8,854 nucleotides of DNA from a virus. Its lineage: Duplodnaviria; Heunggongvirae; Uroviricota; Caudoviricetes. The translations under genes and the position numbers were made by a program. The notes beneath the pieces are model-generated. The model ran no database searches. It had not been told where the DNA came from and saw nothing but the letters and a program-made list of their open reading frames with translations. Location: the IMG/VR virus record IMGVR_UViG_2778261069_000005, positions 1 through 8,854 of that record, one strand, 5' to 3'. Positions 1 to 8,854 of the stretch are shown here, in pieces. Numbering within the stretch: the first letter of the stretch is position 1; each line of letters begins with the position of its first letter.

Positions 1-127
1 GCTGGAAAGGCTGGGCCATACTCCTCCGGCAGAAGCAGAAAAAGCTTATTATGCTTCCATCGGAAACGATGATCTGGCAGCCTGAGTTCACAGATAAAAC
101 ACTCTCCAGGAAACCCGGGGCGGTTCA
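1..127 (+). mobile_element. Right end of an IS3-family insertion sequence (partial): transposase C-terminal codons 2-85, terminal repeat ending ...GGCGGTTCA at 127
   Basis: Frame from position 2 reads LERLGHTPPAEAEKAYYASIGNDDLAA then TGA at 83-85, which fits the C-terminal integrase-like motif of IS3-family OrfB transposases. The element ends in CA at 126-127 (the reverse complement begins TGAACCGCCCC), typical IS3-family termini. Positions 4-127 are an exact inverted repeat of 8731-8854. Confidence 0.75.
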
Positions 128-207
128 GTGGATTGATCCAGTAATTCCCTCAGAATTCCATCTGGATTTGTTCAGAACGCTCGGTCTTGCACACCGGGCG
201 TTTTTTA
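128..207 (+). ncRNA. oop: OOP-like antisense RNA, antisense to the 3-prime end of cII
   Basis: Sequence from 128 (GTGGATTGATCCAGTAAT...CCATCTGGATTTGTTCAGAACGCTCGG...) closely resembles the lambda OOP RNA as I recall it. It is about 78 nt, overlaps the cII 3-prime end on the opposite strand, and ends in a hairpin plus T-run. Confidence 0.55.
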
Positions 208-449
208 TTGGTGAGTCCATCAAGCGCATACTTAAAAGCTCTGCTAATCGGACTGATGTCTGATGCCATTCCGAAAGCACACAAGACCGAAGCAATAAAT
301 CTCCAGTCCGTTCTGCTTATCTTCGATTCATGACAGCCAATCATCTTTGCCAGACCGCGCTGGGTAAGCGTTGACAGGTTGATAAGTAAATCTGTTTCTG
401 CGCGATCAACATCACGCTGTGATAGTTTGCTGTAACTTGTTTGTTCCAT
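150..449 (-). CDS. cII: CII-like transcriptional activator (lysogeny establishment)
   Basis: 99 aa. C-terminus LTNKKRPVCKTERSEQIQMEF matches the lambda CII C-terminus, and the central part (ESKISRTDWRFIASVL) aligns with the lambda CII helix-turn-helix region. Sits downstream of cro and nutR on the same strand. Confidence 0.85.
   Translation of the reverse strand: MEQTSYSKLSQRDVDRAETDLLINLSTLTQRGLAKMIGCHESKISRTDWRFIASVLCAFGMASDISPISRAFKYALDGLTNKKRPVCKTERSEQIQMEF
180..207 (+). terminator. Intrinsic terminator of the OOP-like RNA
   Basis: Stem GCTCGGT (180-186) pairs with ACCGGGC (194-200) with one G-U, loop of 7 nt, followed by TTTTTT at 202-207. Confidence 0.6.
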
Positions 450-534
450 TTCTTAAGATTTCCAATAGTGAATAGCTAGTTGAAAGGTATGCGTGGAAAC
501 GCATATGGCCTTAGTTGGTCAGATATCTTGGAAC

Positions 535-580
535 TCGCTTTTCAGCGACGTAGGACGAATGTCCGTTGTTACAAAGAGCG
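535..580 (-). promoter_or_regulatory. nutR-like N-utilisation site: boxA (564-580) and boxB hairpin (535-548) on the minus strand
   Basis: Minus strand reads CGCTCTTTGTAACAACGG (boxA, close to the rrn/lambdoid consensus GCTCTTTAACAA), then 15 nt, then TCGCT-GAAA-AGCGA (5-bp stem, GAAA tetraloop). It lies 8 nt after the cro stop and is a near copy of the nutL architecture at 2733-2778. Confidence 0.6.
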
Positions 581-587
581 GGGTTAC

Positions 588-821
588 TTATGCTGCTGAT
601 GCTCTACGCGATACGAACACCAGATTTTCCTTTTTCACAGGTTTATAACCCGTGAAATTACGAGTGGCTTCTTCGATTGCATTCGCTTTATCTGGGGAAG
701 CTCTTCGAAACCCATATGCAATCTGATCAAGATAGCCAACTGAAGTATTCGCTAATGCGGCGAGTCGCTTCCATTCCTCACTAGAAGCCTCTTTTCGCCA
801 GCGTAGTAGTTCATTACTCAT
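588..821 (-). CDS. cro: Cro-like small DNA-binding regulator (first gene of the rightward lytic operon)
   Basis: 77 aa ORF divergent from cI, preceded by Shine-Dalgarno GGAGG with 5-nt spacing. Position between the operator region and nutR/cII matches cro; the sequence is not lambda Cro, so the call is positional plus small basic protein. Confidence 0.6.
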   Translation of the reverse strand: MSNELLRWRKEASSEEWKRLAALANTSVGYLDQIAYGFRRASPDKANAIEEATRNFTGYKPVKKENLVFVSRRASAA

Positions 822-831
822 TAGTGCCTCC

Positions 832-934
832 GTTTATCACACAGAGCAACTTTACCATTTTGATAAATAAAACGCAATGAAGATTTATCAAAATGCATAT
901 TTATCCATTTGCTAAATAGAGGGAGAATCGTGGG
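832..934. promoter_or_regulatory. OR-like divergent control region (PR toward cro, PRM toward cI) with repeated operator motifs
   Basis: 17-bp sites of the form TTTATC-N5-GATAAA at 851-867 (TTTACCATTTTGATAAA), 884-900 and 900-916, plus a half-site at 833-838. Candidate PR on the minus strand: -35 TTGCGT (872-877), 17-bp spacer, -10 TAAAGT (849-854), with the strongest operator in the spacer. Confidence 0.55.
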
Positions 935-7142: not shown

Positions 7143-7364
7143 ATGGCAGACATCATTGATTCAGCATCAGAAATTGAAGAATTACAGCGCAACACAGCAA
7201 TAAAAATGCACCGCCTGAACCACCAGGCTATATCTGCCACTCATTGTTGTGAGTGTGGCGATCCGATAGATGAACTAAGACGTCTGGCCGTTCAGGGTTG
7301 TCGGACTTGTGCAAGTTGCCAGGAGGATCTGGAGCTTATCAGTAAACAGAGAGGTTCGAAGTGA
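7143..7364 (+). CDS. TraR/DksA-family C4 zinc-finger protein (lambda Orf73-like)
   Basis: 73 aa with two CxxC pairs (CCEC ... CRTC) spaced as in TraR/DksA C4-type zinc fingers. Location and size match the lambda orf73 TraR homologue. Confidence 0.8.
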   Translation: MADIIDSASEIEELQRNTAIKMHRLNHQAISATHCCECGDPIDELRRLAVQGCRTCASCQEDLELISKQRGSK

Positions 7365-7966
7365 GCGAAATTAACTCTCAGGCACTGCGTGAAGCGGCAG
7401 AGCAGGCAATGCATGACGACTGGGGATTTGATGCGGACCTTTTCCATGAGCTGGTAACACCATCGATTGTGCTGGCACTGCTGGATGAACGGGAAAGAAA
7501 CCAGCAATACATCAAACGCCGCGACCAGGAGAACGAGGAAATTGCGCTAACGGTAGGGAAGCTGCGTGTTGAGCTTGAGGAAGCAAAATCAAAACTCAAC
7601 GAGCAGCGTGAGTATTACGAAGGTGTTATCTCGGATGGGAGTAAACGTATTGCTGAACTGGAGAAAAGCGAAGAGCAACTCATTAACGAGCGTGACCATG
7701 CTGAGTCTGCTTTAGCTGATATGTACTTCGCAACAACCGGGGATAGGCCTGAGTGGAGTAACTGTTTCAGTTTTTCAGATGCTGTCGATGCCGTAGTTGA
7801 CAGAATTGCTGATTTAGAAGCCAAACAGCCATCGCCAGTAGTACCGGAAGAAAAACCAATGCCTAACCCTCTTAGCATGTACACAGTTGATGCTGTTGCA
7901 GCTATTGCAGAGGTGAGAGGCTGGAACGCCTGCCGTGCAGCCATGCTTAAGGGAGATAAATCATGA
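7361..7966 (+). CDS. ea22: Ea22-like protein with a central coiled-coil region, GTG start
   Basis: 201 aa. N-terminal part (MSEINSQALREAAEQAMHDDWGFDADLFHELV...) resembles lambda Ea22 as I recall it; the C-terminal part appears different. GTGA overlap with the upstream stop and Shine-Dalgarno GAGAGG upstream. Confidence 0.65.
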   Translation: MSEINSQALREAAEQAMHDDWGFDADLFHELVTPSIVLALLDERERNQQYIKRRDQENEEIALTVGKLRVELEEAKSKLNEQREYYEGVISDGSKRIAELEKSEEQLINERDHAESALADMYFATTGDRPEWSNCFSFSDAVDAVVDRIADLEAKQPSPVVPEEKPMPNPLSMYTVDAVAAIAEVRGWNACRAAMLKGDKS

Positions 7967-8313
7967 TTAATCGAACCAAACTGGAGCACATCCTCGAGTA
8001 TGCCAGGCAGCAGAGGCGCTTTGGCCAGCTTTGTAAAATTCTGCCAGGAGATATGGTTGAAATCGTGGAGATTGCCATGCGTAAGACTGGCAACTCTCCG
8101 GTAAGTCCGGGTGGTTGGATAAGCTGTAGTGAGCGAATGCCCGCTCAAGATGATTGGATTTTAATTTATTCAAAGCACGGTGAGTATATGGCAGGACAGG
8201 TACAAGAGGAATACGTGGAGTTGAGCGACGGCACTTTATCGTGGTTAGGGAACGCCTTGTACTGGATGCTGCTACCAGAACCGCCGCAGGGAGTGAATGA
8301 TGAATTGGCCTGA
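7963..8313 (+). CDS. Hypothetical phage protein, 116 aa (possibly DUF551-like)
   Basis: ATGA overlap with the ea22-like stop and Shine-Dalgarno GGGAG upstream. C-terminal WMLLPEPP-type motif is reminiscent of a prophage DUF family; that assignment is from memory only. Confidence 0.6.
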   Translation: MINRTKLEHILEYARQQRRFGQLCKILPGDMVEIVEIAMRKTGNSPVSPGGWISCSERMPAQDDWILIYSKHGEYMAGQVQEEYVELSDGTLSWLGNALYWMLLPEPPQGVNDELA

Positions 8314-8383
8314 AGCCTTCACCGCTGTAGGAGTTGCAATCGCGGTGGCATTTATTCTGTATTCGCTTTTCCGCTGGGGATAA
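8297..8383 (+). CDS. Candidate 28-aa hydrophobic peptide (MMNWPEAFTAVGVAIAVAFILYSLFRWG)
   Basis: Small ORF overlapping the 3-prime end of the previous gene and ending 5 nt before the next start. Single predicted transmembrane segment. Confidence 0.3.
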   Translation: MMNWPEAFTAVGVAIAVAFILYSLFRWG

Positions 8384-8387
8384 AGGA

Positions 8388-8630
8388 ATGTTCGCTCTGA
8401 TTCAACGTGGTCAGATATACACCGATAGCGCCGGCTACCCGATAAAAATTCTTCGCTGCATAAACAACACTGTGTTGTACAGAAGAATGGATGGGCGAAC
8501 ACAGTCGGTAAAAATAAACGATTTTAATGAACTGTTTGAACGGATCGATCACAAGGAATACCGACAAATTCTGGCTGAAACAGAGCAGGAGAACCATCTG
8601 AAAAAATTACGCGCCATGCAAAGGAGATAA
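8388..8630 (+). CDS. Hypothetical protein, 80 aa (the ORF track uses a TTG start at 8334 for 98 aa)
   Basis: ATG at 8388 with GGGGA 7 nt upstream. No recognisable motif. Occupies the ea8.5/xis-proximal position but does not resemble lambda Xis. Confidence 0.55.
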   Translation: MFALIQRGQIYTDSAGYPIKILRCINNTVLYRRMDGRTQSVKINDFNELFERIDHKEYRQILAETEQENHLKKLRAMQRR

Positions 8631-8668
8631 ACCGGTAAAGGTGTTCGCGATAAAGGTGAATATCGGCA

Positions 8669-8730
8669 ATGAATAACAATCCTCGCACTCGCGGGGATTT
8701 CTTTTATCTGAACTCGCTACGGCGGGTTTT
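8669..8730 (+). pseudogene. Possible 5-prime gene fragment (MNNNPRTRGDFFYLNSLRRVF...) truncated by the IS insertion at 8731
   Basis: ATG at 8669 with AAGGTG upstream. The reading frame runs directly into the IS terminus at 8731, and the continuation is IS sequence. Confidence 0.3.
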
Positions 8731-8854
8731 TGAACCGCCCCGGGTTTCCTGGAGAGTGTTTTATCTGTGAACTCAGGCTGCCAGATCATCGTTTCCGATG
8801 GAAGCATAATAAGCTTTTTCTGCTTCTGCCGGAGGAGTATGGCCCAGCCTTTCC
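8731..8854 (-). mobile_element. Right end of a second IS3-family copy in inverted orientation (partial): transposase C-terminal codons on the minus strand 8773-8853, terminus at 8731
   Basis: Exact reverse complement of positions 4-127. Minus strand encodes the same ...LERLGHTPPAEAEKAYYASIGNDDLAA-stop tail, and the element ends TGAACCGCCCC at 8731. Confidence 0.75.

Follow-up and report, generated by a model that had tools for sequence, protein, structure and literature searches.

Apparent isolation of a lambdoid immunity and Red segment between inverted IS629/IS1203 ends probably reflects, for the most part, assembly boundaries

Results

The window carries the early-left arm and immunity region of a lambdoid prophage

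Within the window, the whole stretch of DNA analysed here (8,854 bp), the core (128-8730) comprises the immunity region of a lambdoid prophage and its early-left arm, in the order cII-cro-cI-N-cIII-kil-gam-bet-exo and on through a DUF4222 gene (Table 1). We found cII, cI (S24), N, cIII, kil, gam, bet (RecT) and exo (YqaJ) in lambda order, and their Pfam labels bore out the original reading of the cargo as an immunity-plus-Red module with N; cIII and kil belong to this lambdoid cargo as well. The cI protein is identical in two related loci (L009 and L001). The gene at the cro position corresponds to a 234-nt gene annotated as Cro at the same position in phage ST2-8624 (L035), a comparison of placement rather than of computed identity. 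Ten accessory ORFs, including the 120/42-aa pair, the 149-aa/DUF2528 genes and the exo-xis genes, were scanned with PADLOC for defence functions and gave no match. Ea22, cII and TraR proteins are each present in thousands of blocks.

The left edge of the core aligns with the oop antisense-RNA region of lambda, and a terminator-like hairpin at 174-204 is followed by a T-run. The lambda records fetched carry no oop annotation; taking lambda 38675 as the presumed start of oop, the IS end described below coincides exactly with the 5' end of the oop-region homologue in the lambda alignment.

Table 1. Coordinates of the genes and elements in the window
Feature	Position	Strand	Evidence
IS629/IS1203 right end (IS3 family), cut by contig start	1..127	+	Nucleotide identity to complete copies; translation
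GTG, triplet beside left IS end; predicted 3-bp target duplication if simple insertion	128..130	.	L009 comparison
Lambda oop antisense-RNA region homologue	128..208	+	Alignment with lambda 38579-38719
cII	150..449	-	PF05269 Phage_CII
cro-position gene, 77 aa	588..821	-	Between cII and cI, divergent from cI; no Pfam match
cI repressor (LexA-like, S24 peptidase), intact	935..1639	+	PF00717
Two ORFs (120 and 42 aa) at lambda rexAB position	1908..2414	+	Called genes; no Pfam match
N antiterminator	2877..3149	+	PF25694 N_peptide
149-aa ORF and DUF2528 (Ea10-like) gene	3208..4221	+	Gene calls, Pfam labels
cIII thermoregulator RNA element	4281..4339	+	Rfam RF01804 (Lambda_thermo), 88.5 bits, E = 4e-21
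cIII	4294-4458	+	PF02061
kil	4427-4570	+	PF06301
gam (Red module 4645..6409)	4645-4941	+	PF06064
bet (Red module)	4947-5732	+	PF03837
exo (Red module)	5729-6409	+	PF09588
exo-xis accessory genes: DUF1317, DUF1382, 71-aa ORF, TraR/DksA zinc-finger, Ea22-like, DUF551, DUF4222	6406..8630	+	Pfam
TTT, triplet beside right IS end; predicted target duplication	8728..8730	.	L009 comparison
Second IS629/IS1203 right end, inverted, cut after 124 nt by contig end	8731..8854	-	Perfect reverse complement of 4-127

Right ends of IS629/IS1203 flank the core in inverted orientation

A repeat search of the window recovered an inverted pair with arms at 4-127 and 8731-8854, each 124 nt long and 100% complementary across an 8,603-nt spacer, in agreement with the exact reverse complementarity described in the original prediction. 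Given that the runner-up inverted pair spans 23 nt at 87%, the terminal pair lies far beyond chance level. IS sequence also covers bases 1-3, giving an IS length of 127 nt at the left end and 124 nt at the right end.

These terminal repeats are the ends of the IS3-family element IS629/IS1203, which is common in E. coli. Positions 2-85, read in frame 2, encode the last 27 codons and the stop of the orfB DDE (rve) transposase (translation LERLGHTPPAEAEKAYYASIGNDDLAA, then stop), and this C-terminal peptide is identical to that of a RefSeq-annotated IS1203 transposase in a related locus, L033 (ending ...GRLGHTPPAEAEKAYYASIGNDDLAA, then stop). At the nucleotide level, the left end matches at 127/127 nt (100%) the 3' ends of the L026 and L037 elements, which are complete at 1,310 bp, and at 126/127 nt (99.2%) the RefSeq "IS3-like element IS1203 family" copy in L033. 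Complete IS629 copies start with TGAACCGCCCCGG and finish with CCGGGGCGGTTCA, and thus have the 5'-TG...CA-3' termini and imperfect terminal inverted repeats of the IS3 family; their left end (IRL) reads TGAACCGCCCCGGGAATCCTGGAG..., and their transposases carry HTH_Tnp_1, HTH_21 and rve domains. Full-length IS629/IS1203 is ~1,310 bp long, has orfA and orfB with a programmed -1 frameshift, and makes a 3-4-bp target-site duplication.

In the window, the right terminal inverted repeat (IRR) closes with ...GGCGGTTCA at position 127, a CA terminus, and the mirror copy starts at 8731, so that the IRR of both copies touches phage DNA and the right ends point inward. An inward-facing IS3-type transposase 3' end with a CA terminus had been predicted at both ends of the window, and both the identity of the element and the extension of the similarity into its transposase gene are now established. 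The left and right junction sequences differ, and the two IS ends are therefore separate. Since two different right-end junctions exist, the data support at least two IS right ends flanking the segment in inverted orientation.

The window is an entire draft contig that stops inside a collapsed repeat

The window is identical to the entire contig PTRS01000106.1 (8,854 bp, range 1-8854) of draft assembly GCA_002965725.1, the only record on which the 80-aa DUF4222 variant is encoded. The contig halts 127 nt (left) and 124 nt (right) inside the IS, and both of its ends are assembly breaks in a collapsed multi-copy repeat. A depth of 127 nt at the left end is what would be expected of a de Bruijn contig built with k = 127, while the 124 nt at the right end would fit this k only if another genomic IS copy has AAA beside its right end.

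Because the assembler stopped inside a repeated IS, the contig shows a perfect terminal inverted repeat of 124 nt and seems to lack replication and integration genes. By the Pfam labels of genes called on PTRS01000106.1, the segment between the IS ends is indeed without O/P and without xis/int, as the original prediction had stated; however, these genes are missing because of the contig boundaries, and their absence is hence not evidence for an isolated module.

A short-read contig that ends inside a collapsed repeat could in principle be chimeric or a hairpin, with no IS lying beside this phage DNA at all. We consider such a pure artefact extremely improbable and dropped the idea, since the two junctions have different flanks, each is single-base precise in a collinear prophage, as real insertions predict, and finished genomes carry IS629 a few bases to a few hundred bases from the left site.

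An uninterrupted prophage matches the core in a single collinear block

We carried out the proposed comparison with an uninterrupted prophage, and window 128-8730 (8,603 bp) aligned in one piece with positions 264-8863 of locus L009, with 29 differences. The majority of these (21/29) fall in 158-240, a small allele swap at the 3' end of cII, leaving 8 in the other ~8,490 bp; outside the swap, the core is therefore ~99.9% identical to L009. In L009, O lies immediately to the left of the aligned block, and a 114-aa ORF, xis, int and mdtA lie to its right. Complete genomes show the same gene order, the prophage adjoins mdtA in close relatives, and the block occupies its native prophage place in relatives. 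Two IS insertions or IS-mediated deletions had been thought to have carved out an isolated module, an interpretation that is not supported, given that the window is a whole contig ending in a collapsed repeat, with a core collinear with intact L009.

The left IS end separates the stop codon of cII from the Shine-Dalgarno sequence of O, where L009 reads ...GTCATAATGACTCCT/GTGGATTG (slashes mark breakpoints and junctions). The right IS end falls within a T-run that separates the DUF4222 gene from the 114-aa ORF preceding xis, where L009 reads ...CGGCGGGTTTT/GTTTTATGGAG. Both breakpoints are intergenic, clean and single-base precise within an otherwise collinear prophage, and phage DNA begins exactly at the IS end.

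IS629 copies in related loci include simple insertions and rearrangements

The fetched loci contain 11 such IS copies, each 1,310 bp long, and 3-bp duplications accompany 10 of them. We examined six other IS629 copies at the cII-O boundary or early within O; five are simple insertions with a 3-bp duplication, and the replication gene resumes beyond the IS in each of those five. Finished genomes carry IS629 from a few bases to ~360 bp away from the left site, with six distinct sites within ~360 bp at cII-O/5' O in different prophages; the search joined same-strand pieces only, and we claim no orientation bias for insertions near cII-O.

Rearranged copies were also found. In L008 (CP045827.1), a single IS629 joins the interior of O to the window-equivalent position 6801, deleting cII through exo, and in L033 lysis genes lie beyond IS629 without a target duplication. 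Rearranged IS629 copies are common, given that matching duplications were present at just 21 of 47 IS629 sites in a published survey (PMC3271280), which located 62% of the IS629 copies of O157 genomes in prophages or prophage-like elements. Stx2a phages contain 0-3 IS629 copies each, and IS629 has been reported to be a main driver of within-type phage diversity (PMC4587872).

The rearrangements in L008 and L033, together with the survey's count of matching duplications, are consistent with the idea that IS629-mediated deletion or rearrangement on one or both sides of the segment left an immunity-plus-Red remnant detached from the replication, late and xis-int genes. We nevertheless regard such a remnant as unlikely. 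The breakpoints are clean intergenic insertion points with phage DNA starting right at the IS end, the core shows no decay relative to the intact prophage, duplications accompany most IS629 copies in the fetched loci (10/11) and near cII-O (5/6), and the contig boundaries fully account for the apparent isolation.

Neither junction recurs in the collections searched

Queries of 176 nt spanning the left and right junctions found no contiguous match in 5,426 complete E. coli genomes, and exact 35-mers of both junctions had no match in viral_contigs. The left junction, the one scanned in genome_contigs and metagenome_contigs, was absent from both collections as an exact 35-mer. Of the ORFs that cross the junctions, neither the 70-aa nor the 66-aa one is in the gene index, which holds the 86-aa edge product on PTRS01000106.1 only. 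Some phage records had matches beginning at query position 1, but none of them shares the left junction, and IS629 sits elsewhere in each: it lies inside exo in phage ST2-8624, between an ORF and ea10 in JLK-2012, and 238 bp into O in an Stx1a phage.

These searches bear on whether the IS pair could mobilise the intervening DNA, as had originally been suggested. If the block were a functional composite transposon, mobilising its repressor, N, Red and cargo genes together, it would resemble Tn5 or Tn10, in form only, in having inverted IS copies around cargo. IS3-family elements transpose by a copy-out-paste-in route via a circle that joins the element's own IRL and IRR, and both outer ends here would be IRL. 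The IS-bracketed unit was found at no second location, since the junction searches in E. coli genomes and contig collections were empty; furthermore, junction-spanning products are confined to PTRS01000106.1, and relatives carry the block at its native prophage position. We therefore hold a functional composite transposon to be scarcely credible.

Homologous recombination between the inverted IS629 copies could have flipped the segment in all or some of the population; O-P-Q would then lie downstream of pL, and xis-int of pR. Two inverted copies with at least 124 nt of identity and 8.6 kb between them are a substrate for RecA-dependent inversion, and the inner junctions would be the same in either isomer, making the contig compatible with both. 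However, the window is silent on orientation relative to the flanks and nothing points to inversion, so we judge it improbable.

Discussion

Taken together, these observations make it very likely that the window is a contig ending in two IS629 copies of an ordinary, IS-peppered lambdoid prophage, and that its "isolation" is mostly an assembly boundary effect. Both IS copies would then be full-length, 1,310-bp elements that inserted separately, with 3-bp duplications of GTG and TTT, and the remaining prophage would be found on other contigs, with O-P-nin-Q on one side and xis-int on the other. With simple insertions, the outer junction facing O should read ...CTCCTGTG-IRL and the one facing xis IRL-TTTGTTTTATGG. 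More specifically, a simple left insertion predicts ...GTCATAATGACTCCTGTG/TGAACCGCC on the O-P contig, and a simple right insertion predicts GGCGGTTCA/TTTGTTTTATGGAGACAAG when read on the + strand of the window, where the reverse-complemented left end leads into the ORF114-xis-int-mdtA contig.

In a prophage interrupted in this manner, the pR transcript to O-P-Q would have to traverse an IS of 1.3 kb, running antisense to its transposase genes, and the pL transcript to xis-int would likewise have to traverse an IS, while the oop antisense RNA would be cut off from its own promoter. Since both early transcripts would have to cross an IS and oop would be parted from its promoter, the prophage is probably impaired in induction. 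Two IS629 insertions per prophage are well documented in E. coli.

A more speculative idea is that the inverted IS629 pair could serve as a recombinational switch and, relatedly, that cII-O/5' O is a preferred IS629 landing zone; we think this very unlikely. As a switch, the 8.6-kb inversion would swap the early arms, with pL reading into O-P-Q and pR into xis-int; both promoters would still be CI-repressed and their transcripts still N-antiterminated, resulting in a reversible change in prophage inducibility. Insertion at such a landing zone would immobilise prophages repeatedly, and the oop promoter pO would then fire into the transposase genes.

The main lesson of this locus concerns assembly: a contig that starts and ends in one repeat always mimics a "module bracketed by IS copies", and wherever terminal repeats, inverted or direct, are close to the k-mer in length (127 and 124 nt in this case), an assembly breakpoint is the first explanation to consider. 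In biological terms, the locus is a further case of IS629 colonising lambdoid prophages, a known driver of prophage diversification and inactivation in E. coli. The significance beyond the caution about assembly is small; inversion or deletion of a prophage early region by an IS629 pair would be an incremental result, if shown in a strain with the flanks recovered.

Relative to lambda itself, the core agrees in gene order and Pfam families, possesses the cIII thermosensor and has an oop region that aligns, but it has another immunity type and other accessory ORFs (the 120/42-aa pair and the 149-aa ORF) and is without rexAB. The inverted IS arms bracket cargo as in Tn10/IS10 and Tn5/IS50, although the IS family and mechanism are different, the outward ends here would be IRL, and there is no sign of movement as a unit. 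A closer parallel is IS629/IS1203 in the lambdoid prophages of E. coli, both Stx and non-Stx and especially in EHEC, where the element and habitat are the same and multiple copies occur per phage; in contrast with those prophages, the inner ends alone are visible here, and the two exact insertion points are in no other record searched. IS629-associated deletions in O157 prophages were reportedly described by Ooka et al. in 2009 (Genome Res 19:1809; cited in PMC3271280 and PMC4587872). L008 resembles such deletions in having lost exactly the module that the window retains, whereas the visible part of the window shows no deletion.

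The inverted contig ends match IS629/IS1203

The window is base-for-base identical to positions 1-8854 of contig PTRS01000106.1 (NCBI assembly GCA_002965725.1), the contig's whole span, and is therefore an entire draft-assembly contig whose two ends are contig ends. The 80-aa DUF4222 protein, whose gene departs from the version in the closest uninterrupted relative, L009, at nucleotides 8553 and 8555, has a single record in a 153-billion-gene index, on this same contig.

A repeat search of the window confirmed the inverted repeat: its arms are 100% complementary over 124 nt at a spacing of 8,603 nt, just as the original prediction held. 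Since the runner-up inverted pair spans only 23 nt at 87%, this repeat is not due to chance. Bases 1-3 are likewise IS, giving 127 nt of element at the left end and 124 nt at the right. The left terminus, ...GGCGGTTCA, ends at 127, its mirror copy starts at 8731, and both right ends face phage DNA, so the inward direction claimed for them stands.

Complete 1,310-bp elements in E. coli UTME-10 (L026) and an Stx1a phage (L037) have right ends that match the 127 nt at 100% identity; identity is 99.2% with the copy in L033 (RefSeq "IS3-like element IS1203 family transposase") and 95.3% with a copy annotated IS629 in phage JLK-2012. All 11 complete copies in the fetched loci measure 1,310 bp, start with TGAACCGCCCCGG and end with CCGGGGCGGTTCA, and 10 carry a 3-bp target duplication. 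Judged by this identity and the shared length and termini, the terminal element is IS629/IS1203, which upholds the predicted IS3-family assignment and gives the element a name.

A stop 127 nt inside a multi-copy IS is the outcome expected of a k = 127 de Bruijn assembler at a collapsed repeat, while 124 nt at the right end would fit k = 127 only if another IS copy in that genome also has AAA beside its right end. Both the perfect 124-nt terminal repeat and the missing replication and integration genes thus reflect where the assembly broke, not properties of the locus.

Features of the window and IS629/IS1203 copies in comparison loci
Feature	Position	Details
Transposase 3' end	2-85	frame 2, LERLGHTPPAEAEKAYYASIGNDDLAA then stop
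Inverted arms	4-127 / 8731-8854	
cII 3' end and oop allele	158-240	
oop-like terminator	174-204	
120- and 42-aa ORFs	1908-2414	
21-nt direct repeats	2643-2688	TTTATCATTTTGCTATTGTCA / TTTATCATTTCGATAAAGTCA, upstream of N
Promoter-like site	2658-2686 (+)	overlapped by the repeats
149-aa ORF	3208-3657	
cIII thermoregulator	4281-4339	Rfam, 88.5 bits
DUF4222 gene	8388-8630	
Terminator-like hairpin	8678-8699	
GC-rich imperfect palindrome	within 8678-8730	CTCGCTACGGCGGG
IS near cII-O	L034:4088	duplication TAA
IS near cII-O	L037:2627 = L042:2588 (one site)	duplication CTA
IS near cII-O	L041:2588	duplication GAT
IS near cII-O	L043:2588	duplication TGG
IS near cII-O	L033:4088	no duplication; lysis genes on far side
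IS629 in CP045827.1	L008:8131-9440	links O interior to window-equivalent 6801

The core aligns in one piece with an uninterrupted prophage

Pfam labels on the contig's genes are cII, S24-type cI repressor, N, DUF2528, cIII, Kil, Gam, RecT (Bet), YqaJ (Exo), DUF1317, DUF1382, TraR/DksA, Ea22, DUF551 and DUF4222. The core between the IS ends (128-8730) aligned in one piece with L009:264-8863, part of a contig from a second draft genome (GCA_017785435.1), and showed 29 differences. Twenty-one of these fall in 158-240, where an allele is swapped across the 3' end of cII and the oop region; the window's version is lambda-like, with cII ending ...ERSEQIQMEF. The rest of the core, ~8,490 bp, has just eight; on sequence grounds, the swap is a small mosaic exchange within an otherwise ~99.9% identical segment.

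In L009, O directly borders the core on the left, and on the right come a 114-aa ORF, xis, int and finally mdtA; complete genomes L001 and L002 keep this order, and on their left side P, ren, the nin genes and Q follow beyond O. The alignment and gene order together identify the core as part of a normal lambdoid prophage, collinear and free of decay. The isolated, carved-out module proposed originally is accordingly a contig-boundary artefact.

Neither Pfam nor PADLOC gave a match for the 120-, 42- and 149-aa ORFs, which sit at rexAB-like and post-N "moron" positions. The 120/42-aa pair accompanies the window's cI/cro/cII immunity type in L016 and L022, whose recombination module differs. The 21-nt repeats and the promoter-like site probably correspond to the oL operators and pL.

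Insertion points and predicted effects

The left site, ...GTCATAATGACTCCT|GTGGATTG in uninterrupted sequence, falls after the cII stop and before the Shine-Dalgarno of O, 10 bp from the O start codon. The right site, ...CGGCGGGTTTT|GTTTTATGGAG, falls in a T-run after the DUF4222 gene and before the 114-aa ORF, ~30 nt past the terminator-like hairpin. A second palindrome directly precedes the right IS end. Simple insertions should have produced duplications of GTG (left) and TTT (right).

Although ~4,300-4,550 of 5,426 complete E. coli genomes matched the 176-nt junction queries, mostly through the IS portion only, neither junction occurred in these genomes or in IMG/VR contigs, and the left was also absent from species-representative genomes and JGI metagenome contigs. 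Junction-spanning products had no record in the gene index beyond PTRS01000106.1. Both insertions appear strain-specific and, since the core is nearly identical to L009, also appear recent.

Transcripts from pR, running antisense to the transposase genes, would enter the left IS at its right end and have to traverse it to reach O-P-Q; pL transcripts would likewise have to traverse the right IS to reach xis-int. In an alignment with lambda 38579-38719, the left IS end (127|128) is equivalent to lambda 38676|38675, which we take to be where the oop antisense RNA starts. The left insertion would then sever the oop region from its promoter pO, which would instead point into the left end of the IS, in sense relative to the transposase genes.

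DNA beyond the IS ends and other IS629 copies

Prophages that differ in immunity type carry IS629/IS1203 at five further distinct sites, all no more than ~360 bp from the left site of the window. Given this comparative evidence from other copies, the arrangement we favor as probable is two simple insertions flanked by the remainder of the prophage. Rearrangement of at least one side is rather unlikely: the L033 copy lacks a duplication and has lysis genes on its far side, the IS629 copy in CP045827.1 adjoins a deletion of cII through exo, and of 47 IS629 sites Rump et al. saw matching duplications at just 21 (PMC3271280), but the replication gene resumes beyond the IS at every other cII-O site except L033. 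The CP045827.1 deletion is the reciprocal of the block kept in the window; TTA triplets match on both sides of that copy, which may be chance.

Because the inner junctions would be the same after inversion, the contig is neutral on whether the block between the two copies has inverted through recombination between them. Mobilization of the block as a composite transposon, also raised in the original prediction, finds no support, as the searched collections held no second instance of the IS-bracketed unit. IS3-family transposition proceeds via an IRL-IRR circle junction, whereas the outer ends here would both be IRL.

Counting window position 127, six distinct IS629/IS1203 sites lie within ~360 bp of the cII-O boundary or in the 5' part of O; all share one orientation, which permits no claim of orientation bias because the search joins same-strand pieces only. 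Such clustering may mean that the element favors this region, or that replication is repeatedly inactivated in this way. Overall, the arrangement is an ordinary one of a kind already well described: 62% of IS629 copies sit in prophages or prophage-like elements (Rump et al., PMC3271280), and Stx2a phages have 0-3 IS629 copies each (Yin et al., PMC4587872).
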